A stretch of DNA of 64,000 nt from an uncultured virus (IMG/VR IMGVR_UViG_3300001605_000029) (taxonomy: Duplodnaviria; Heunggongvirae; Uroviricota; Caudoviricetes), in the IMG/VR virus record IMGVR_UViG_3300001605_000029, positions 1 to 64,000 of that record. One strand, 5' to 3'. Below, piece by piece: positions 210-48,648 of the stretch. Under the pieces are notes generated by a model. That model saw only the letters and a list, made by a program, of their open reading frames with translations. It was not told the origin of the DNA and made no database searches. Position numbers and translations under genes: made by a program. The stretch's first letter is position 1. The number at the start of each line of letters is the position of its first letter.

Positions 210-280
210 TGGTTGCGGGGGAAGTATTCGAAACCTCTGGGCCGAGCTTATGAGACTGACCGATCGCCTGAATCCCCGCA
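210..280 (-). tRNA. Atypical tRNA-Met/fMet-like (CAT)
   Basis: TGCGGGG/CCCCGCA acceptor, loop CTCATAA, CCA; reduced D-arm and weak anticodon stem. Confidence 0.6.
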
Positions 281-286
281 ATACAC

Positions 287-357
287 TGGTGCACCTAACG
301 GGAATCGAACCCGTCTACTTCTGGCTTCAAATCCAGCTAGTAAACCATTCCAGCGCA
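287..357 (-). ncRNA. Degenerate tRNA-like RNA (TTG-containing loop)
   Basis: Good T-arm (ACGGG TTCGATT CCCGT) and CCA; imperfect acceptor, no clear D-arm, irregular anticodon loop. Confidence 0.5.
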
Positions 358-363
358 TAAATC

Positions 364-617
364 TGGCTTCGTTAGCAGGACTCGAACCTGCGATAAGGGC
401 TCTAAATCGCGTATGCTGGGTGCCCCCGTGTTTCCCAAAGTTACCCTCACATCCCCTCAGCGCCTTATCTCACTTTCGTCTATTGCAACCTGTTCCGCAC
501 TTCCCGGACTCACAGTGTTTGGTTTTTTACAGCCTACGCGATTGTTATTGCAATATCTTACTGGTGCCTTATCTCACCTACTCAATGCTACTCTACCTTC
601 CTCTACACTATAACGAA
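364..617 (-). ncRNA. 254-nt tRNA-like RNA with large structured insert
   Basis: 5' TTCGTTA pairs with 3' TAACGAA-G-CCA; T-arm GCAGG TTCGAGT CCTGC; insert contains AATCGCGTA/TACGCGATT and repeated GTGAGATAAGGC. Confidence 0.65.
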
Positions 618-624
618 ATAAACT

Positions 625-702
625 TGGTGGACGATAGTGGAATCGAACCACTGCCACGGCAGGGTTACTGCCGCCTGTTATCCTTTACAACAGTCATCGC
701 CC
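625..702 (-). ncRNA. tRNA-like RNA with G3.U70 acceptor and non-canonical anticodon arm
   Basis: GGGCGAT/ATCGTCC-A-CCA, T-arm, 5-bp D stem, 7-bp stem GCGGCAG/CTGCCGT around TAACC. Confidence 0.65.
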
Positions 703-788
703 ATATAGAAACACACTATGGGAGGGTCCATAGTCATACCCGAAACCTAGCGTCGGGGCACATCACCTCAATCGGCGTGCTTTTATAT
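703..788 (-). ncRNA. Structured RNA with AAAGCACGC/GTGTGTTT closing stem (copy A)
   Basis: Long terminal helix plus internal hairpins CCCGA/TCGGG and CTATGG/CCATAG. Confidence 0.5.
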
Positions 789-928
789 GGTGTAGTAAAC
801 AGGATTCGAACCTGCCTAGTCATCCGTTTTCTTCAATGGGTAACGTTACCTCCCATCGCCATATGCCCCTCGGATTAATTAGATCCTACTCACATACAGA
901 CAAACAACTTGTCAACCAAACTTACCAC
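788..928 (-). ncRNA. 141-nt tRNA-like RNA with G3.U70 acceptor
   Basis: GTGGTAA/TTACTAC-A-CCA and T-arm GCAGG TTCGAAT CCTGT; enlarged body without canonical anticodon arm. Confidence 0.65.
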
Positions 929-934
929 ATAAAT

Positions 935-1010
935 TGGTGGAAGATATCGGAATCGAACCGATCAGGCTATCTGCTTGCAAAGCAAATCCGGGTGCCCAAG
1001 CCCATCCCCC
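935..1010 (-). tRNA. tRNA-Ala(TGC)
   Basis: Loop TTTGCAA, G3.U70, CCA. Confidence 0.88.
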
Positions 1011-1026
1011 ATTTAAAAACTCTTTG

Positions 1027-1102
1027 CTCCGCATCTGGGTAACGATCCCAGCTAAACACGGATTAACAGTCCGGCCCATGCACCATGCTCGGGTTCTGCG
1101 GA
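1027..1102 (-). tRNA. tRNA-Asn(GTT), no encoded CCA
   Basis: Loop CTGTTAA, T-loop ATCGTTA, flanking inverted repeat. Confidence 0.75.
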
Positions 1103-1125
1103 GCAAAGAATTCTCTTTGCGTGTT

Positions 1126-1200
1126 TGGCGGTCCCAAGGGGTAACGATCCCCTTCTTCTAGCGTGACAGGCTAGTGTGCGTCCATGAACACTTTGAGACC
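1126..1200 (-). tRNA. tRNA-Asp(GTC)
   Basis: Loop CTGTCAC, T-loop ATCGTTA, G discriminator, CCA. Confidence 0.85.
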
Positions 1201-1298
1201 TAAATTCAGACCCTTGTTTTGATAAAGCAGACAATGGCTAGATTTTACTGCTTTTACTCTACACACTTTTCTTTGTGTAAAAACTCTTTCGAGATTCT

Positions 1299-1385
1299 TG
1301 GTGGAGACGACTGGAGTCGAACCAGTAGTGCCTTTCGGGCGGCGGATTTACAGTCCACTGGGGTTACCAATTTTCCTACATCTCC
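1299..1385 (-). tRNA. tRNA-Tyr(GTA)
   Basis: Loop CTGTAAA, long variable arm, CCA. Confidence 0.9.
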
Positions 1386-1392
1386 ATAAACT

Positions 1393-1442
1393 TGGTGGAG
1401 GTCGTTACACTTATCAAGTGTCGGTGATTAGCCTTGACCCCC
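1393..1442 (-). ncRNA. 50-nt mini-tRNA lacking a T-arm
   Basis: GGGGGTC/GACCTCC-A-CCA acceptor (G3.U70) and ACAC TTGATAA GTGT anticodon-like hairpin. Confidence 0.6.
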
Positions 1443-1707: not shown

Positions 1708-1712
1708 ATAAT

Positions 1713-1825
1713 TCACTATATGCAAACACACTAAACAAATCGTGCCTCCCTAGTTTGTCGCTAAGTTCCAACATGAGGATCAAGTACGGTTCGGCGTACC
1801 ACGATAGTGTGTTTACATATAGTGA
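1713..1825 (-). ncRNA. Structured RNA with 21-bp closing stem (copy B)
   Basis: TCACTATATGTAAACACACTA/TAGTGTGTTTGCATATAGTGA with internal ATCGTG/CACGAT and GTACG/CGTAC helices. Confidence 0.55.
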
Positions 1826-1893
1826 CTGCTTCCCAGCAGTATATATGTATTTTACGTTTTTAAAGAACACAGTTAATTTCTTAACATGTGTTT

Positions 1894-1922
1894 ATTGTAG
1901 CAAAGTTTTTTGACTTTGTCAA
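1894..1922 (-). promoter_or_regulatory. sigma70-type promoter inside tRNA array
   Basis: TTGACA-17-TACAAT. Confidence 0.7.
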
Positions 1923-2041: not shown

Positions 2042-2116
2042 TGGCCCCTGAGGTTACTGTCGAAAGTAACATTCCCAACTATTAACAAGGCTTGCGCGGG
2101 CCTGTCAAACTCAAGG
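2042..2116 (-). ncRNA. Aberrant tRNA-like RNA
   Basis: CCTTGAG/CTCAGGG-G-CCA acceptor, T-like arm GTTACT TTCGAC AGTAAC, one long hairpin replacing the D and anticodon arms. Confidence 0.5.
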
Positions 2117-4414: not shown

Positions 4415-5011
4415 TTAACTTAGTATATAGTCTGCTGCACCTAAGTCAATCATTTCTTTGGCCGTTAAGTAAATATCGGTAGTTGTTAACAGCTTTGATT
4501 TAATTTTAGAAGTACTGAGTCCGGTCATTGTTTGTAAAATTGCCAACATCCTTGCATTACAGTGCTCGCCTTCTTTCATTTGAGCTTTGAGATCATGATG
4601 TTTACCTTCTGTGGCATCACTGTATTGATGGCACATAATTCCAGTGTTGGGTGCTATAAATCGGTTGCCCGGAGTTCCCGAAACAAAAATTAAAAAGGCA
4701 GCGCTCATAATGTTACCGATACCTATAGTTCGAATTGGTACGTGACTGGTCTGCATTATATCAATTAATGCAAACGCTTGATATAGGTCGCCGCCATGAC
4801 TATTAATATAAAGAGTCAGTTCTTTATTTTTGGAAATTTCGATATTTTCATAAGTAATCCATTTGATTGTATCTAGAATATTCTCTTCGGAAATTTCACC
4901 GACTAGAAAGTGTACAGAATTTTCTAGTAGTTTAGAATCGATTCTGTCCTTGGCGTTAAAATCCTCAATTTTTTTCAAGATTGTTCCTTTGGATTCATTA
5001 TTACTTATCAT
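4415..5011 (-). CDS. clpP: ClpP-like protease subunit
   Basis: LYINSHGG, SAAFLIF, IMCHQ motifs; true start may be downstream. Confidence 0.88.
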   Translation of the reverse strand: MISNNESKGTILKKIEDFNAKDRIDSKLLENSVHFLVGEISEENILDTIKWITYENIEISKNKELTLYINSHGGDLYQAFALIDIMQTSHVPIRTIGIGNIMSAAFLIFVSGTPGNRFIAPNTGIMCHQYSDATEGKHHDLKAQMKEGEHCNARMLAILQTMTGLSTSKIKSKLLTTTDIYLTAKEMIDLGAADYILS

Positions 5012-24261: not shown

Positions 24262-24525
24262 TTAACGGCGATTAAATTTTAGTAGGAAAAATAAGAGATC
24301 GCGTTCGTCGTCTAATTTAAGAATATATTCGTAATCGGAAGATTGTTGAAATTGCCATCGTATGCCCAATGGCCCAAATAAATTTTCTACTTCTTTAATG
24401 AAGAGCCTTCTTCCCTTGCGCCCTCCACGGACGACATCTGATCGCATATCCAAGAATACGATCCAGTTGCCGTACCGACTGCTTAGATTATTATAATACT
24501 TAACAATCCTGAACGCATCTTTCAT
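24262..24525 (-). CDS. F.LKW-family protein
   Basis: C-terminus LDDERDLLFFLLKF. Confidence 0.65.
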   Translation of the reverse strand: MKDAFRIVKYYNNLSSRYGNWIVFLDMRSDVVRGGRKGRRLFIKEVENLFGPLGIRWQFQQSSDYEYILKLDDERDLLFFLLKFNRR

Positions 24526-24821
24526 TCTTCTTCAATAGTGACCTGTAACGGATGGCCGTTGAGTCTTGCCGATTGTGTGGCATCAATACCTCGTTGTTCG
24601 GCAATTTCATGACTGTACACACCCACTACAGCACTACCAGTATTATGAATTTCTAATGTAATATCTTTCGCCGAAGATTCGGTATGCTTAAAGATGGTGG
24701 TTAACAATTCCATAACAAACTCCATAGGTGTGTGGTCATCGTTAAGGAACAGCACTTTCCACATACCGGGGGGTTTAATAGCAATTGCAATTTTTTCGTC
24801 AATCTTTACTTCTGTAGTCAT
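24522..24821 (-). CDS. clpS: Clp protease adaptor ClpS
   Basis: WKVLFLNDDHTPMEFV, EIHNTG, HPLQ. Confidence 0.95.
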   Translation of the reverse strand: MTTEVKIDEKIAIAIKPPGMWKVLFLNDDHTPMEFVMELLTTIFKHTESSAKDITLEIHNTGSAVVGVYSHEIAEQRGIDATQSARLNGHPLQVTIEEE

Positions 24822-25364: not shown

Positions 25365-27265
25365 TTAGTCTTTCTTTTCAGTGAAAGTAGCATCGACTAC
25401 ATTATCATCCTGTGCAGCTTCGGGCTGAGCTTGTGCTTGTTCCTTAGCTTGCTTTTTATCCAACAACACTTTCATGGCTGGATAAACCTTGTTAAGCTCT
25501 TCTGTAATTTTTTCTTTGTCGTTGCCTTTGACAGCGTCGTCAACAGCTGAAATTACAGTTTCAAGCTCATTAATCTCGGACTCGGTCATTTCGGATCTAA
25601 ACTCTTCTAGATCTTTTTTAACTTCGTGCATTTGTGCTTCAGCGCTGTTGCGGGTTTCAATTAGCTCTCGAGCTTTTTTATCACTCTCGGCATTGGCCTC
25701 GGCCTCTTGAACCATACGCTCAATTTCTTCCTTACTTAGACCACTATCACTCTTAATGGTGATTTTGTTTTCTTTTCCGGTGTTCTTGTCTTTGGCACTG
25801 ATATTCATAATGCCGTTGGCATCTATATCGAACGTAACTTCAATTTGTGGCATACCTCGACGTGCCGGTGCAATACCTTCTAGATTGAATTCCCCCAATG
25901 CCTTGTTATATTGGAAAAGTTCTCTCTCACCTTGACCGACCTTGATTGTAACTGCTAATTGGTTGTCTTCGGCAGTACTAAAGGTTTGACTGGCTTTGGT
26001 GGGAATGGTTGTATTCTTTTGAACCAACTTGGTAAAGACTCCGCCCATTGTTTCAATGCCGAGGCTTAGAGGAGTAACGTCAAGCAATAGTACGTCATTT
26101 CGATCGCCGCCTAACACTGCACCTTGGATAGCGGCACCAGCTGCAACTGCTTCGTCTGGGTTAACATCCTTGCGCGGAGCTTTGCCGAACATTTTCTCAA
26201 CGGCTTCTTGTACTTTAGGCATACGTGTTTGGCCACCGACGAGAATAACTTCGTCAATGTCGTTGGCAGTTACCCCAGCATCTCGCAATGCAATACGGCA
26301 AGGTTCCAAACTGCGTTGTACAAGATCGTCTACTAATGCTTCGAGTTTAGATCGACTTAGTTTAACAACTAGATGTTTTGGACCCNNTTGCGTCAGCAGT
26401 AACATAAGGCTAAGTTAACTTCTGTCTGAGCCGAACTTGAAAAGTTCAATTTTTTGCTTTTTACAGTCAGCTATCTTTAANACGTTGTAACGCCAACACA
26501 TCGTTCTTAAGATCGACACCAGACTCTTTCTTGAATTCGTCTACCAAGTAATCCATGATGCGTTGGTCAAAGTCTTCACCACCCAAGAACGTGTCACCGT
26601 TAGTGCTTAATACTTCGATTTGTTTATCGCCGTCGACATCCGCAATTTCAATGATCGATACGTCGAAAGTACCGCCACCAAGGTCGTAAACAGCAATCTT
26701 GCGATCGCCTTTACTAGACTTATCGACGCCATAGCTAAGAGCTGCCGCAGTAGGCTCGTTAATAATACGCAGTACTTCCAGCCCGGCGATTTGACCAGCA
26801 TCTTTAGTCGCCTGTCTTTGGCTGTCGTTAAAGTATGCCGGAACTGTAATAACTGCTTGGGTAACTTCATGTCCTAAATAGTCCTCTGCGGTTTTCTTCA
26901 TTTTTCGAAGAACTTCTGCTGACACTTGTGGAGGAGCCAATTCTTTATCTTGTGCCCGAATCCATGCATCGCCATTCTTTGCTTCCATAATAGTATATGG
27001 CATCAAGTCGATGTCTTTTTGCACAGCCTGTTCTTTAAACTTACGACCGATTAATCGCTTGCTGGCGTAGATTGTGTTTTTGGGATTTGTTACTGCTTGA
27101 CGCTTTGCACTTGCGCCAACAAGAATGTCAGAATCTGTGTATGCTACAATACTTGGTGTAGTACGAGCACCTTCTGAATTTTCAATAACTTTGGGGATTC
27201 CGTTTTCTACAACGGTCTACACATGAGTTTGTGGTACCTAAGTCGATACCGATGATCTTTGACAT
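25365..27265 (-). CDS. dnaK: DnaK (Hsp70), broken by Ns/frameshifts
   Basis: [35 protein letters not shown]. Confidence 0.96.
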
Positions 27266-28305: not shown

Positions 28306-28548
28306 TCAATACAATTTTTTAGGCAACTGTTGATCTCTTAAAACTTTTTGCCATCGAGCTTTGGCAGCACCCTTGGCTTTCTTTCGAGCAGTGGTAGGCT
28401 TGACATAAAACTCTCTGTCGCGAAGTTCTTCAAGTACACTGCTGTCGTCTACTTTCTTTTTAAATCGTCTAAGCGCCTGATTAATATTCTCGTAATCTTT
28501 AACAATTACTGATCTACCTTTTGGTTTTTTATTTTCCATATCTATCAA
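28306..28548 (-). CDS. rpsU: Ribosomal protein bS21
   Basis: ENINQALRRFKKKV...REFYVKPTTARK. Confidence 0.9.
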   Translation of the reverse strand: MIDMENKKPKGRSVIVKDYENINQALRRFKKKVDDSSVLEELRDREFYVKPTTARKKAKGAAKARWQKVLRDQQLPKKLY

Positions 28549-39513: not shown

Positions 39514-39540
39514 AAAGAAAAGCACCCAAAGGTGCTTTCT
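39514..39540 (-). terminator. Terminator after tmRNA
   Basis: AAAGCACC TTTG GGTGCTTTT. Confidence 0.8.
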
Positions 39541-39544
39541 ATTA

Positions 39545-39810
39545 TTTTCTGTTACGAGGTATAATTACCCTAAGCAGTGTTTAGGCTGCTAATGCGAACT
39601 GTGAGTCGTTTGCGTTTACTTTGTTGTGCTTCTGCGACCGGGTTACCCCAATCCTAACGGCTTCTACATTGCCGGACTGTCCATTTCCGTACTCTTGACC
39701 CAATCGATAGCCTGGTCATCCCCACCTAAATATACATTATACACTTAGGTGGAGATGGTGGGAGTCGAACCCACGTCTTGAATCCTTTTCTGTCTACTTC
39801 ATACAGTCTT
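39545..39810 (-). ncRNA. ssrA: Circularly permuted (two-piece) tmRNA
   Basis: T-arm/3' acceptor CATCTCC-A-CC precedes 5' GGGGATG (G3.U70); tag frame ANDSQFALAA* at 39581-39613; outer ends approximate. Confidence 0.92.
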
Positions 39811-39884
39811 AACTTACATATAAAAATGTATCCACACAAACGTCACAATTAGAATTGCTACAATAAGGTGGTACAGTTTCATAA

Positions 39885-44655: not shown

Positions 44656-45672
44656 TTATAGTTTACAGGATTCGCATGACTCTTCGTCGTCGAAGTCAAT
44701 AGGCTCTAACATTGTGGGTGATTCTTCTGCCGCTGCTTTACTTCCTGCTTTATTAATCAGACTGTAATAAAAAGTCTTTAATCCCCACATGTGAGCCTGC
44801 ATTAGATTTTTAGCAATTAGTGTAGTGGGTACTTTACGATCTGGAAAATGTGCTGGATTGTAGAAAGTGTTAGTACTAATACTCTGATCTGTGTAGGCTG
44901 CAATAACAGCCGCAGTCTTAATATAGCCTTCGCAATCTTTCTGTTCCCACATTAACTGATACTTGTTCTTTAACTTGTGATACTCTGGGACAACTTGTAC
45001 GAAAGATCCTGCTTTTGATTCTTTAGTACTAATCAAGCTCATAGGCATCTCAATACCGTTGGTACTGTTGATAACAACACTACTACTTTCAACAGGAGCA
45101 ACTGCACCGTTAGTGGCATTACGAACTCCGTACAGTTTCATTTCAGCACGTAGCGTTTCCCAATCCAGTTCAGGAGCAAAGTCAGTGAGTTCATTCACGC
45201 CAGCGGCACGTAGTTCCCAAGGAAACACACCTTGGCCGTAACGTGTTTTATCTGATCCCAAGCATCGGCCACGCTCTCGAGCCAGTTCCACACTCATCTC
45301 TGTCAAGTAAAAGCTCTGATGTTCCTGCCAGGTTTTGACTTCGGCCAGTGCATCGGCTTCTCCGTATTTCAAACCACGCTTGGCGTGCCAGTAGGCCAAA
45401 TTGGTGATACCAATACCTAGTGGGCGGATCTCGTCGTTGCTTAGTTTAGATTGAATACTAAGAAAATCTTGGTAATCGAGAATATTATTAAGACTACGAT
45501 GAAGAATCCGACAAGCACGGCGCATGTCTTCTGGATTACGGAACGCACCCCAATTGATTGAACCCAATGTGCAAAGGGCAATACGTCCCTCTGCTTCGTC
45601 AATTTCATAGTATTCATATTCTTCATCTAACTCTTCGGGTAGACATTCTATTTCTTCGTATAATTTATTCAT
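44656..45672 (-). CDS. nrdA: Ribonucleotide reductase alpha subunit, C-terminal fragment
   Basis: IALCTL, APVESSS, LKTFYY, terminal CESCKL. Confidence 0.93.
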   Translation of the reverse strand: MNKLYEEIECLPEELDEEYEYYEIDEAEGRIALCTLGSINWGAFRNPEDMRRACRILHRSLNNILDYQDFLSIQSKLSNDEIRPLGIGITNLAYWHAKRGLKYGEADALAEVKTWQEHQSFYLTEMSVELARERGRCLGSDKTRYGQGVFPWELRAAGVNELTDFAPELDWETLRAEMKLYGVRNATNGAVAPVESSSVVINSTNGIEMPMSLISTKESKAGSFVQVVPEYHKLKNKYQLMWEQKDCEGYIKTAAVIAAYTDQSISTNTFYNPAHFPDRKVPTTLIAKNLMQAHMWGLKTFYYSLINKAGSKAAAEESPTMLEPIDFDDEESCESCKL

Positions 45673-46311
45673 TCTTCAACCTTTTGTTTTGTTTCTTCCG
45701 ATTTCCATGCTCTTGGATCAACTGTTTCACCTGTAAGTTCATATCTGAAGTCTGGATCGNAAACCATATAGCCCAGTTTGTTCCATTTGATTACACCATC
45801 GTCAAACAAAAAGATACAGCCACGACACATGCAGAAACTGGCACCATTGTCACTCATCACATTACCGTTGACTGTGCCCACATACTTGACTACATTGCCT
45901 TTATACATTTCTCTCAATGCTTCGTAGTAGTCAATCATTCTTCAACTCTAGCAGGTTTGAAGAACGGTGTAGACCCCATCATACGGAGGAACACCAATCC
46001 GTTGGGCAAGGTGTCTAAACTACCTCGGTGTCGTTCGATCCTGACCTCACCGTTGTGTTCTGTGCCGTAGAAAAACTGATCCGTAGCACCACCGTCTATT
46101 TGTTGTTTAAAATATTCGTTCATTCTTCAACTCCGAAATCTTGTTTAGTTTTCCAAATAGCAAAATCTAAATCGCCATCACAATTTTCCATATTGTGTAG
46201 ACATTCCCGCACAATCAACTCGGCGAACTTTTCCTTACTGAAGATTAACTCGCCATCATACTCAACAAGACTCTGTGCGGCAAACTTTTCTAACATTGGT
46301 ATCTTACTCAT
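45669..46311 (-). CDS. Three small hypothetical genes inside split nrdA (45669-45938, 45935-46123, 46120-46311)
   Basis: ATGA-coupled; all end in VEE*. Confidence 0.65.
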
Positions 46312-47132
46312 ACATTTCCCAATCCTACTCTACTATAACCTAACTTTGATTTAATTTCTTTACGGTCTGCTCTATTTTTCAATGTTCTACCTTGTGTGTA
46401 TGTTGGGTTTTCTTTAAGAAACTTATCTAATTCATCTGCTTGAAGTTTTACATTATCAACACCATTTGTCGCCCAACGATGACTCGAAGTAGCAGACGAT
46501 GCTTGCTTACGCTGTTCTTCACTCCTATGATAGGGATCATACTTAACTGGGGTAGATAACTTCTTATTGACTTCACTAATCAGTTGTTTCAACCCACTAT
46601 CGATTCTATTCTTCAACGTCATTTGACTAACACCGAGTTGTTCTTTGAGGACAGATTCAATCTCTTTTCTCAACAAATAATTTCCTTGTTTGTCGTTAGC
46701 AATACAAAACTGGACTACCGCATCAATTATCATATCCTTAGTAATGCTAGGTTTAGCGTTACTATTTTTCATACCTACTTGTAAATCTGATCGTAGTTTA
46801 CTAAGTTTTTTCATTCTTTTAGTTGAATATTTTTCAGTGGTGTTCCCACCGTCTCCGCCCTGAGTCATATTGTATCCATTTTTAAATGTATCAAACTGCT
46901 CAACATAAAAACACTCTTTCAGTTTTGCTTGTTCCTTTGTCTCTACTTCGCATAACTGTTCAGAAACAATATTTTCAGCACCATACTTGCGAATAGCACG
47001 ATGAAAATGTCGATCAGAACTATTTTGAGAATCTTCAATGTGCTCTAATAATCTGTCAGACATAGTTTTCTTTGTGTATCCTATATATTTCTTGCTGTTT
47101 AAAGTATGGCAGTAAACAATGTATTTCGTCAT
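46308..47132 (-). mobile_element. GIY-YIG homing endonuclease
   Basis: YIVY...KYIGYT, R..EH, GYNMTQGGDG. Confidence 0.88.
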
Positions 47133-47169
47133 AGTAATCTCCTACACTTATTTATGACTGAGATACTAT
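47131..47169 (-). promoter_or_regulatory. RBS-sequestering hairpin with late-promoter-like motif in loop
   Basis: ATAGTATCTC...ATAAATA...GAGATTACTAT covering GGAG and ATG. Confidence 0.65.
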
Positions 47170-47175
47170 TGCCTA

Positions 47176-48648
47176 CTATTTTATCTTCCTAATGTTGACA
47201 ATATCATTTGATTTTGTTTTCATAAACTCATCTACATTGGACTTTTTAACTCTAATCAACTTGCGTTCAGGATTCATTCGCTTGAAAGATTTTGTCGGAA
47301 GCAAAATTTCCAAACACAAATTTGACTGGTAAATTGTATGGTACTCAGGATCAAAAGGTCCTTGGTTCATTACATTATCAATGAATACGAGATATATTCG
47401 ACCCGTATCTGTGCGTTCCTTCAGTATACCACCCTTGAAAACTTCTTCGGCGCTCATGGTCTTTTTGCGTAGACCTTTTTGCCGTTCGTATTTTACGTAG
47501 AGTTGTTCAAACAATTCGGTATTGCTATAGAATGCTTCGTATAGATCGGGCACTTCATTGGGATCAAAGAATGTTATTTGTTCTTTGTTCTTGAATCGTC
47601 TCCAGAAGAAGGCGGATAAGACCACACCGTAGTCCATGTGTCGGACTCTAGTTTCGTCTGTACCTTGATTGTTCTTAAGCACAATAAGGTCATCAAACTG
47701 GTGATGCCAGATTGGATAAAAGACTGTAGCACTTGCATTACGGATACCACCTTGTGAACATGAACGTAGGTCACCGAACCATTTCTTTAAGAAGGGAATC
47801 ATGCCGGTGTGCATAATCTCACCTCCCCTAATAGGGGATCCCAATGGGCGTAGGCGTCCAATCTCTAAGCCAATACCAGCACGTTTGCTAGCATACTTTG
47901 CCATCATTTCACCAGATGCAAAGATACTATCCAAATCATCATCTGAACGTATAAGGACACAAGAGGAAAACTGTTTAGTAGGAGTACCGAGCCCAGCAAG
48001 TACAGGAGTAGCAAGAGTGAATAGCCCATCACTGGCAGCATTGTAATATTCCTTGATGTATTTCATTCGAGCACCATTAGGCTCTTCTTTATTCATAACA
48101 GTGGCCGCAGCTACCATATATCTAATTTGCGGTGTTTCGTAAGTTTGTTTAGTACTACGATTCTTAACTAGATATTTTTCAATCAATTGCTCAATAGCAG
48201 CATATGAGTATTCTTCATCTTTAGAATGATCCAACATATCATTCATCTTACTCCAATCGTCTTCGGTATACCATTCTAGTAGTTCACCAGTATACAATCC
48301 TGTAGCTACATTCTTTTTTACAATATCATATAGACTAGGCGGCGCATAATCACCATATACATCTTTGCGTAGCATACTCAATCTTTGCTTGCCGGCAACG
48401 TATTGATAATTAACATGTCCAATATCGGGATTGGATTCTACATCTATAAGGTCTACAATTGCTCTTAAAGTAATTTCATCTACTTCTCTAGTAGTAATAC
48501 CGTCATAAAAATGCGGCTGTGCTTTAATCTCAATCATCGACTGGCTAACGTCGGCAATTCCTTTGCAGACTTTGGCAATTTGCGCTTGCCATTTTTCAAT
48601 CATTAACGGTTCTTTTTTTCCCGATCTTTTTGTTACAACAATGGACAT
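47176..48648 (-). CDS. nrdA: Ribonucleotide reductase alpha subunit, N-terminal fragment
   Basis: ATP cone VTKRSG, QFSSCVL, QSNLCLEI. Confidence 0.95.
   Translation of the reverse strand: MSIVVTKRSGKKEPLMIEKWQAQIAKVCKGIADVSQSMIEIKAQPHFYDGITTREVDEITLRAIVDLIDVESNPDIGHVNYQYVAGKQRLSMLRKDVYGDYAPPSLYDIVKKNVATGLYTGELLEWYTEDDWSKMNDMLDHSKDEEYSYAAIEQLIEKYLVKNRSTKQTYETPQIRYMVAAATVMNKEEPNGARMKYIKEYYNAASDGLFTLATPVLAGLGTPTKQFSSCVLIRSDDDLDSIFASGEMMAKYASKRAGIGLEIGRLRPLGSPIRGGEIMHTGMIPFLKKWFGDLRSCSQGGIRNASATVFYPIWHHQFDDLIVLKNNQGTDETRVRHMDYGVVLSAFFWRRFKNKEQITFFDPNEVPDLYEAFYSNTELFEQLYVKYERQKGLRKKTMSAEEVFKGGILKERTDTGRIYLVFIDNVMNQGPFDPEYHTIYQSNLCLEILLPTKSFKRMNPERKLIRVKKSNVDEFMKTKSNDIVNIRKIK

Follow-up and report, generated by a model that had tools for sequence, protein, structure and literature searches.

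Transfer-messenger RNA (tmRNA, SsrA) is a non-decoding RNA that combines a tRNA-like domain with helix 2, and it is charged by alanyl-tRNA synthetase (AlaRS) through the G3.U70 pair of its acceptor stem, since AlaRS does not read the anticodon. The staphylococcal tRNA-Gly for cell-wall bridges is a non-proteinogenic aminoacyl donor, and the tRNA cluster of phage T4 contains stable RNAs, species 1 and 2, whose function has stayed unknown. Phage tRNA arrays are usually taken as codon-supply or anti-nuclease devices. Here we analysed a stretch of 64,000 nucleotides (the window) from an uncultured virus of the Caudoviricetes, which forms the first 64 kb of the 72,073-base IMG/VR record IMGVR_UViG_3300001605_000029 (rated ~20% complete). 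Its tRNA array contains three tRNA-like units, named C1, C2 and C3, which share the acceptor signature of tRNA-Ala. Two of them, C1 and C2, belong to conserved RNA families and may point to a function beyond translation.

The original prediction, made from the sequence alone, was that each of these units has a 7-bp acceptor stem with G3.U70, discriminator A73 and CCA. It was found that 7 of 7 pairs form in each unit and that the CCA is encoded. The acceptor stems are GGGCGAU/AUCGUCC in C1 (702-625, 78 nt), GUGGUAA/UUACUAC in C2 (928-788, 141 nt) and GGGGGUC/GACCUCC in C3 (1442-1393, 50 nt). Among the other correctly bounded units that were tabulated, only tRNA-Ala(UGC) at 1010-935 has this signature. 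The frequency of G3.U70 was determined in 452 distinct tRNAs called by ARAGORN in the window and in 76 related loci, which were reached via the neighbouring ClpP gene. The pair was present in 19 of them, namely 16 tRNA-Ala, C1, one tRNA-Gln and one tRNA-His, the last being a register artefact of G-1; outside tRNA-Ala and C1 the count was 2 of 435. This rarity excludes chance as the source of the signature. The Rfam tRNA family RF00005 gave no match at 625-702, 788-928 or 1393-1442 up to E = 5, while 17 other members of the array matched, and no Rfam family at all matched C1, C2 or C3.

The bacterial alanine identity set, as given in PMC9976931, comprises A73, G2-C71, G3.U70, G4-C69 and G20, and the charging of minihelices by AlaRS is named in the reference list of that paper. 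Both minor determinants, G2-C71 and G4-C69, are present in C3; C2 has U2-A71 with G4-C69, and C1 has G2-C71 but C4-G69. In the C1 family described below, G4-C69 was found in 3/30 members and U2-A71 in 1/30. C1 and C2 are predicted to be charged with alanine by AlaRS, and C3 might be.

The minimum-free-energy fold of C1 was a cloverleaf with a 7-bp anticodon stem and a 5-nt loop (-32.6 kcal/mol, z-score -3.2). Of the three units, ARAGORN called C1 alone; it took C1 for tRNA-Val(aac) and placed the anticodon at position 37, which is odd. Blastn of the 76 ClpP-linked loci, which carry large tRNA arrays, gave no homologue of C1, C2 or C3, and blastn of region 560-1460 against cultured phages in 'distant' mode matched only neighbouring tRNAs and the long-stem element. 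An acceptor-stem scan of the inter-tRNA gaps in the same 76 loci yielded 40 forward versus 53 reverse-strand matches, which is noise. The first C1 homologue came from a contig found via C2, and it shares the unusual D arm of C1. A pattern on that D arm, with GGGC fixed at positions 1-4, retrieved 13 viral loci; a pattern on the D arm and T loop that left the acceptor free retrieved 27 metagenome loci with 23 distinct sequences; and a sister pattern retrieved one member in the tRNA array of a Mesorhizobium genome contig. The majority pattern had 0 matches in 185,579 prokaryote genomes. After pooling, the family comprised 31 distinct sequences, 24 of which came from patterns without acceptor constraint. 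Thirty had an intact acceptor (7/7 pairs), and the 31st stops after the T arm. G3.U70 and A73 were found in 30/30 and CCA in 29/30, the remaining one having CAA.

Six acceptor haplotypes were observed in the C1 family (GGGCUGU/ACAGUCC, GGGCGAU/AUCGUCC, GGGCCUU/AAGGUCC, GGGGUGU/ACACUCC, GUGCCGU/ACGGUAC and GGGCUGA/UCAGUCC), and therefore the pairs 2:71, 4:69, 5:68, 6:67 and 7:66 have been swapped compensatorily around a fixed G.U. In alignment A1, made of 10 family members, 99.6% of the cells were paired and 11 of the 23 pairs had changed on both sides. None of 500 shuffles reached its covariation score, and pairing fell to 37-54% when the 3' partners were slid. Covariance model R1 scored the C1 family at 69-102 bits, and the next best were tRNA-Ala(UGC) genes at 45-49 bits; judging by this ranking, the C1 family is derived from tRNA-Ala. 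The earlier claim of unrelated bodies needs correction for C1, whose body is nearest to tRNA-Ala genes. Over 27 further records of relatives, R1 found nothing above the tRNA-Ala level (~50 bits); in three large records of the R1 scan, 150 candidates were scored of 168, 277 and 306.

C1 had been proposed to be non-decoding, and its relatives agree with this. Position pair 26:44 covaries between G.U and C-G, and 8/10 sequences of A1 have G-C at 32:38; for these reasons the stem was taken to be 7 bp long. The loops are 3-6 nt in length, namely UAACU, UAACC, CAACC and AAACY, the 6-nt CGCAAA and CACAAA, the 5-nt GAAUA and AGAUC, and in one member a GAAA tetraloop on a shortened stem. A canonical anticodon loop has 7 nt, U33 and a purine at position 37; the C1 family has U, C or A at 33 and a pyrimidine at 37. 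Opening the C1 loop to 7 nt gives GUAACCC and, as had been noted, AAC at the anticodon position. Ordinary tRNA-Val genes are present in C1-carrying relatives. The ARAGORN label tRNA-Val(AAC) is very probably wrong for the whole family. Well-formed A34 tRNAs with canonical loops were also observed in relatives, namely Leu-AAG, Ser-AGA and Thr-AGU (L110 2108-2184, L094 1698-1787 and L103 2829-2904). Anticodons of this kind are uncommon in bacteria and hint at decoding via inosine.

C2 folded into an acceptor and a T arm around a branched body, and as a single sequence it was not unusually stable (z-score -0.9). Its architecture comprises the acceptor, a 3-bp mini D arm with an invariant GG in the loop, an 8-bp helix from the elbow, a second 8-bp helix with a small variable hairpin, a covarying hairpin, an A-rich single strand and the T arm. 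The original prediction that C2 has no anticodon arm was not confirmed, as an anticodon-arm-shaped hairpin, GGAU-CUAAUUA-AUCC, is present, which is poorly conserved among homologues. The loop of the variable hairpin differs in length and sequence from member to member and reads like AAU, GAU or GCA. Homologues were found in six further viral contigs by two patterns and in one more (L099) by a scan of loci. Covariance model R2, run over 18 records, added one divergent member at 54 bits, whose acceptor GUGGCGU/ACGCUAC has 5:68, 6:67 and 7:66 all exchanged. All 8 distinct sequences of the C2 family have G1-C72, U2-A71, G3.U70, G4-C69, A73 and CCA. Conservation of the alanine pair among homologues, the absence of which had been named beforehand as a refutation, was thus found in the C1 family (30/30) and the C2 family (8/8), but not for C3, which had no detected homologue.

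In alignment A3, in which the 8 C2 sequences were fitted to the model and structure was thereby favoured, 95.1% of the cells were paired and 15 of the 39 pairs had changed on both sides, with 0/500 shuffles reaching the covariation score. Covariation of the T stem (GCAGG/CCUGU versus UUGGG/CCCAA) and of the internal hairpin was seen in plain MAFFT alignments too. Besides the window, three other records carry both C1 and C2; one record rated complete has C2 without detected C1, with 150 of 306 candidates scored there. A contig from an RNA library covers part of C2 (857-928); it extends into an upstream spacer that resembles the one of another phage, ends in adapter and is indistinguishable from DNA carry-over. 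Three other assignments of C2 were rejected. As a coding unit or mini-tmRNA tag, with a Shine-Dalgarno-like GAGGGG and a 9-codon open reading frame (ORF), it is contradicted by the loss of the AUG from L110 and L112 and by hairpin covariation in this region. R2 gave 19 bits (E = 0.12) at the T4 locus L001, the generic tRNA level, which speaks against homology with T4 species 1 RNA. The same holds for the acceptor-plus-T-arm RNAs upstream of ClpP in relatives, at 17-27 bits. The latter (L021 9477-9586, L023, L024 and L006 12-124) are 110-113-nt RNAs with acceptor, T arm and A73-CCA, carry G3-C70 or A3-U70, and each lies directly behind its own TTGACA/TATAAT promoter.

Purifying selection in C1 and C2 is shown for the acceptor/T-arm half, the elbow GG, G3.U70, A73 and CCA. 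The anticodon end is not a decoding loop; it is blunted in C1 and replaced by a branched helix in C2. The explanation we favour, with a probability of roughly 0.55, is that C1 and C2 are two conserved families of phage RNAs, derived from or modelled on tRNA-Ala, that were selected for charging, are charged by host AlaRS and do not decode, their role being that of a charged-end ligand. They would be transcribed with the second half of the array. As with tRNAs, RNase P would cut their 5' ends and trimming would expose the encoded CCA at their 3' ends, and host AlaRS would load them with alanine. Because AlaRS ignores the anticodon, G3.U70 is the one simple aminoacylation route for an anticodon-less RNA. 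Genes for AlaRS, CCA-adding enzyme and SmpB were found in none of five relatives' records (one rated complete, four incomplete), which is consistent with dependence on host enzymes and with the encoded CCA. The alanine-charged acceptor half could then be a ligand of factors that read charged ends, for example EF-Tu or enzymes whose target is the aminoacyl end.

Among such roles we prefer, with low certainty, a charged decoy or sink that would be co-produced with the remodelled, presumably nuclease-evading tRNAs of the phage. C1 and C2 may instead be alanine donors for some transferase, but the five records yielded no FemAB-type or AlaX-type gene. A wider and doubtful proposal is that large freshwater phages possess a toolkit of alanine-charged, anticodon-less RNAs (C1, C2 and minimal C3-like units) that would form a new effector class. 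Without any decoding, these RNAs might load EF-Tu, or gain entry to ribosomes together with SmpB, and thereby absorb host immune enzymes attacking charged tRNA ends or ternary complexes, or manipulate ribosome rescue. No earlier description of phage non-decoding RNAs with alanine identity was found in the literature, the coverage of which was thin for subscription journals, including the old T4 stable-RNA papers.

C3 consists of a 7-bp acceptor around a 32-nt core, with one small hairpin and neither a T arm nor an anticodon arm (z-score -2.8), and it carries the complete alanine acceptor set. At 6/7 pairs its acceptor (GGGGGU-/-ACCUCC plus ACCA) is the same as in the canonical tRNA-Ala(UGC) genes of relatives. 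The window has no canonical tRNA-Ala, only the remodelled copy at 1010-935. C3 is not a simple internal deletion, because its 32-nt core has nothing in common with tRNA-Ala. An identical copy was found in a contig of another run (X5, spanning 1129-1479 with 0 differences). In X6 and in X9, a single contig seems to run straight from tRNA-Asp into tRNA-Tyr (1383 to 1441), with C3 skipped. These joins cross the 12-nt repeat CCAAGUUUAUGG and are weak, with 25-26 nt on the shorter side and other phages as a possible source. The same tRNA-Asp-tRNA-Tyr junction without C3 is the arrangement in L097. The X5 copy, the X6 and X9 junctions and the L097 arrangement together indicate that C3 is a lineage-specific cassette. 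Beside C1 homologues in relatives, other units with G3.U70, A73 and CCA were observed, at 1440-1496 in L100 (57 nt) and at 1586-1694 in L099 (109 nt). C3 would be either a minimised tRNA-Ala, which could be charged as a microhelix, or a relic. Given its full AlaRS acceptor set and the minimal or odd units beside C1 homologues, the odds that it is functional are about even. Under the favoured explanation, C3 would be a lineage-specific minimal form that joins a canonical tRNA-Ala-type acceptor to an unrelated core.

Several observations weigh against the favoured explanation. AAC stands at the anticodon position in 22/31 distinct C1 sequences, and an inert loop would not need it. A35, C36 and A73 are valine identity elements; since the AAC and A73 of C1 match them, dual recognition of C1 by the alanine and valine enzymes may be conceivable. 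By E. coli rules, C1 (mostly C4-G69, and without G20) and C2 (without G2-C71) would be sub-optimal AlaRS substrates, as the minor determinants are not all kept. For C3, no homologue came from the blastn of the 76 loci, from two pattern scans of viral contigs (0 and 15 matches, none of the 15 in a tRNA-array context) or from blastn of its core against all collected loci, and the X6 and X9 junctions that skip it count on the same side. No partner protein was recognised, and a FemAB-type transferase, SmpB and an AlaX-type (tRNA_SAD) domain were not found in the five relatives' records. The downstream role of C1 and C2 is pure inference.

It is unlikely that these units are processing or structural modules, in which RNase P is attracted by the acceptor and T arm, so that the long transcript is punctuated and the neighbours are freed, charging being irrelevant. 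The odd units do alternate with long-stem spacers (Table 1) in one promoter-driven unit, and RNase P uses the acceptor, the T arm, the elbow GG and CCA. However, RNase P needs neither G3.U70 nor A73, so the invariance of both is left unexplained, and real tRNAs already give cleavage sites every ~80 nt.

Less likely again is that the units are functionless, decaying duplicates of tRNA-Ala in which G3.U70 was merely inherited. Such decay would fit with the tRNA-Ala genes being nearest to C1, with the acceptor that C3 shares with the canonical tRNA-Ala of relatives in a window that has none, with the missing homologue of C3, and with the shuffling of units of phage tRNA arrays at repeated CCA-spacer junctions. 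It fits poorly with the stems of C1 and C2, all of which stay paired with many compensatory changes. An unconstrained G.U is one transition from G-C, yet 30/30 and 8/8 sequences keep it while their neighbours turn over, and the families are spread over many contigs and one bacterial genome array.

A similarly low probability is given to a role of C2, and perhaps of C1, in ribosome rescue, as a tRNA-like domain on a tmRNA-like helix without a tag frame that, with host SmpB, adds one alanine or blocks trans-translation. The layout of C2 (G3.U70 acceptor, mini D loop, long elbow helix and T arm) parallels the tRNA-like domain and helix 2 of tmRNA, and the phage invests in this pathway through a permuted tmRNA, ClpP and ClpS. 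Nevertheless, no tmRNA model matched C2 and no pseudoknot was predicted; the AUG of its mini-ORF is lost in two members, the region forms a covarying hairpin, and SmpB is among the genes not found in the five records.

That some phage or host factor other than AlaRS reads the G.U, the alanine likeness being a by-product of descent from tRNA-Ala, is considered very unlikely. G.U pairs are common recognition sites for proteins and metals, and some minor determinants have been replaced (most C1 members have C4-G69, and C2 has U2-A71), but two families of different body retain A73 and CCA together with G3.U70, a combination that is AlaRS-specific. Hardly tenable is the view that C1 carries valine or alanine and decodes GUN through an AAC or IAC anticodon, possibly recoding Val to Ala: the ARAGORN call, the AAC of most members, the lack of another tRNA-Val in the window and the A34 tRNAs of related phages are outweighed by the Watson-Crick 32:38 pair that shuts the loop to 5 nt, the variable 33 and pyrimidine 37, the members with 4-, 5- and 6-nt loops without AAC, the normal tRNA-Val of C1-bearing relatives and the absence of an Rfam tRNA match up to E = 5.

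All genes of the window are on the minus strand. Protein similarity relates the window to Methylophilales phage Melnitz and to Pelagibacter phage HTVC008M (41.5% and 36.2% amino acid identity, respectively, of the 689-amino-acid CHASE2-cyclase), and complete relatives are ~350 kb long. The host-like genes include ClpP, ClpS, Hsp20, DnaK pieces, ribosomal protein S21, a cold-shock protein, CsgG/CsgF, heme oxygenase and a bilin reductase. With ClpP, ClpS, S21 and tmRNA, the phage invests markedly in protein quality control and translation. The coordinates are collected in Table 1.

Table 1. Positions of the units and genes of the window that are discussed in the text
Feature	Position	Strand	Description
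C1	625..702	-	78-nt cloverleaf, judged tRNA-Ala-derived; G3.U70, C4-G69, A73, CCA; 7-bp 'anticodon' stem, 5-nt loop UAACC
C2	788..928	-	141 nt; tRNA-like acceptor (G3.U70, A73, CCA), T arm, 3-bp mini D arm with invariant GG; long helix forking into two hairpins instead of anticodon arm
C3	1393..1442	-	50 nt; G1-C72, G2-C71, G3.U70, G4-C69, A73, CCA; AGUUUAU spacer on both sides
Fourth odd unit	287..356	-	70 nt, GCGCUGG/UAGGUGC, 6/7 pairs; G3.U70, A73, CCA by manual register
tRNA array	3310-130	-	contains C1, C2 and C3
tRNA-Ala(UGC)	935..1010	-	the only decoding tRNA-Ala of the array; remodelled, odd D arm; same G3.U70/A73/CCA signature; between odd units
Predicted sigma-70-like promoter	1894..1922	-	TTGACA, 17 nt, TG-TACAAT; 11/12 consensus matches, extended -10 TG; consensus match only
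Permuted tmRNA, betaproteobacterial type	39516-39860	-	tag ANDSQFALAA; ARAGORN and Rfam
Long-stem structured spacers	703-787, 1015-1115, ~1710-1830	-	between array units; 12-19-bp terminal stems around small hairpins
tRNA-Asn(GUU)-like cloverleaf	1015-1115	-	T loop AUCGUUA; acceptor lengthened to ~19 bp stem; end CAA, not CCA
Second tRNA-Asp(GUC)	1126-1200	-	T loop AUCGUUA; positions 54/58 swapped, U/A to A/U
254-nt RNA-like unit	364-617	-	tRNA-type acceptor UUCGUUA/UAACGAA, G73, CCA, T arm
Unit missed by ARAGORN default	2042-2116	-	75 nt, CCUUGAG/CUCAGGG, G73, CCA, no normal T loop
Unit missed by ARAGORN default	210-280	-	71-nt tRNA, anticodon CAU, A73, odd T arm
ClpP	4415-5011	-	
ClpS	24522-24821	-	
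Ribosomal protein S21	28306-28548	-	
DnaK	25365-27024	-	two separate ORFs; Hsp70 profile positions 78-258 and 284-590
Ribonucleotide reductase large subunit	44656-48648	-	split around GIY-YIG endonuclease ORF 46308-47132

The predicted promoter divides the tRNA array, with canonical tRNAs upstream and every aberrant unit, including C1, C2 and C3, downstream. C1, C2 and C3 are bordered by short A/U spacers (AGUUUAU, AUUUAU), as are real tRNAs. Introns in the array were rejected, as the intron options of ARAGORN fused neighbouring units into implausible genes and no Rfam intron family matched up to E = 5. The tRNA-Ala(UGC) gave no Rfam tRNA match; its sole match up to E = 5 was tRNA-Sec (17.9 bits, E = 4.9). 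In the fourth odd unit the T arm is normal, the D arm is absent and a long hairpin has UUG in its 8-nt loop; the acceptor stem of this unit was not formed in the minimum-free-energy fold. Among its homologues in L143-L146, the T stem and the long stem have changed compensatorily, and one homologue has G73. This unit may be a remodelled tRNA-Gln, because G3.U70 together with G73 is likewise seen in the remodelled tRNA-Gln genes of relatives.

The long-stem spacers may be RNase III-type processing sites, and the one 3' of C2 was kept in position and stem in contig G002. The core of the Asn-like unit (1023-1109) matched an element without annotation in 24 T4-like Acinetobacter phage records (end GCCA) at 93-95% identity, and a Synechococcus phage at 86%; it looks like a remodelled tRNA that spread horizontally. 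The second tRNA-Asp was 88-97% identical in 6 related loci and 84% in Ralstonia phage RSP15; it shares its T-loop type with the Asn-like unit, and similar loops occur in tRNA-Glu 1633-1707 and in the tRNA-His of a relative. The body of the 254-nt unit has ~180 nt, in which the motif GUGAGAUAAGGC is present twice. This unit was 93% identical to a 257-nt unit in L107/L109 and had no Rfam match, and an RNA-library contig spans 429-547 within it.

Compared with described systems, C1 and C2 are best classed, by analogy, as tRNA-like, non-decoding RNAs of alanine identity, of which the tRNA-like domain of tmRNA is the archetype. They share with it G3.U70, A73-CCA and the T arm; in addition, C2 has a long helix in place of the anticodon arm, and the same phage encodes a permuted tmRNA. 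They differ from tmRNA in having no tag reading frame or predicted pseudoknots and in their size (78-141 nt versus ~350 nt), and C1 keeps a full cloverleaf with D arm. Covariance models of tmRNA did not match C1 or C2 except for a 16.7-bit fragment over the T arm and acceptor of C1, and ARAGORN and Rfam placed a tmRNA only at 39.5 kb. With tRNA-Ala and the synthetic alanine minihelices and microhelices, C1, C2 and C3 have in common G3.U70 and A73 on a 7-bp acceptor. C1 and C2 are without an alanine anticodon or a canonical anticodon loop, and unlike the laboratory constructs both families are natural, conserved and phage-encoded.

The remodelled tRNAs of T5-like phages and mycobacteriophages, which are thought to evade host tRNA nucleases, resemble the aberrant units of the C1/C2 tier in their odd T loops, odd D arms and duplicates. 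Those tRNAs, however, have intact anticodons and still decode, whereas C1 and C2 no longer decode and retain the charging signature alone. Non-proteinogenic donor tRNAs are likewise tRNA-derived and kept for charging rather than translation, but they have normal anticodon arms and known transferases, of which the FemAB type was not found in the five related phage records. To our knowledge, apart from tmRNA no natural bacterial or phage RNA has the property of being charged without decoding. In C1 and C2, two conserved RNA families gave up decoding and kept the alanine charging signal through extensive compensatory evolution, and the selected property appears to be that of being charged, not of reading codons. 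The stable RNAs of the T4 tRNA cluster (species 1, rnaC, 139 nt; species 2, rnaD, 119 nt) are non-tRNA RNAs of similar size that also lie inside a phage tRNA cluster, and rnaC has a canonical T arm next to its 3' end. It differs from C2 in that no homology was detectable, its annotated end is without an encoded CCA and G3.U70 could not be placed. If the charging of C1 and C2 proves true, it could nevertheless bear on these unexplained T4 RNAs.

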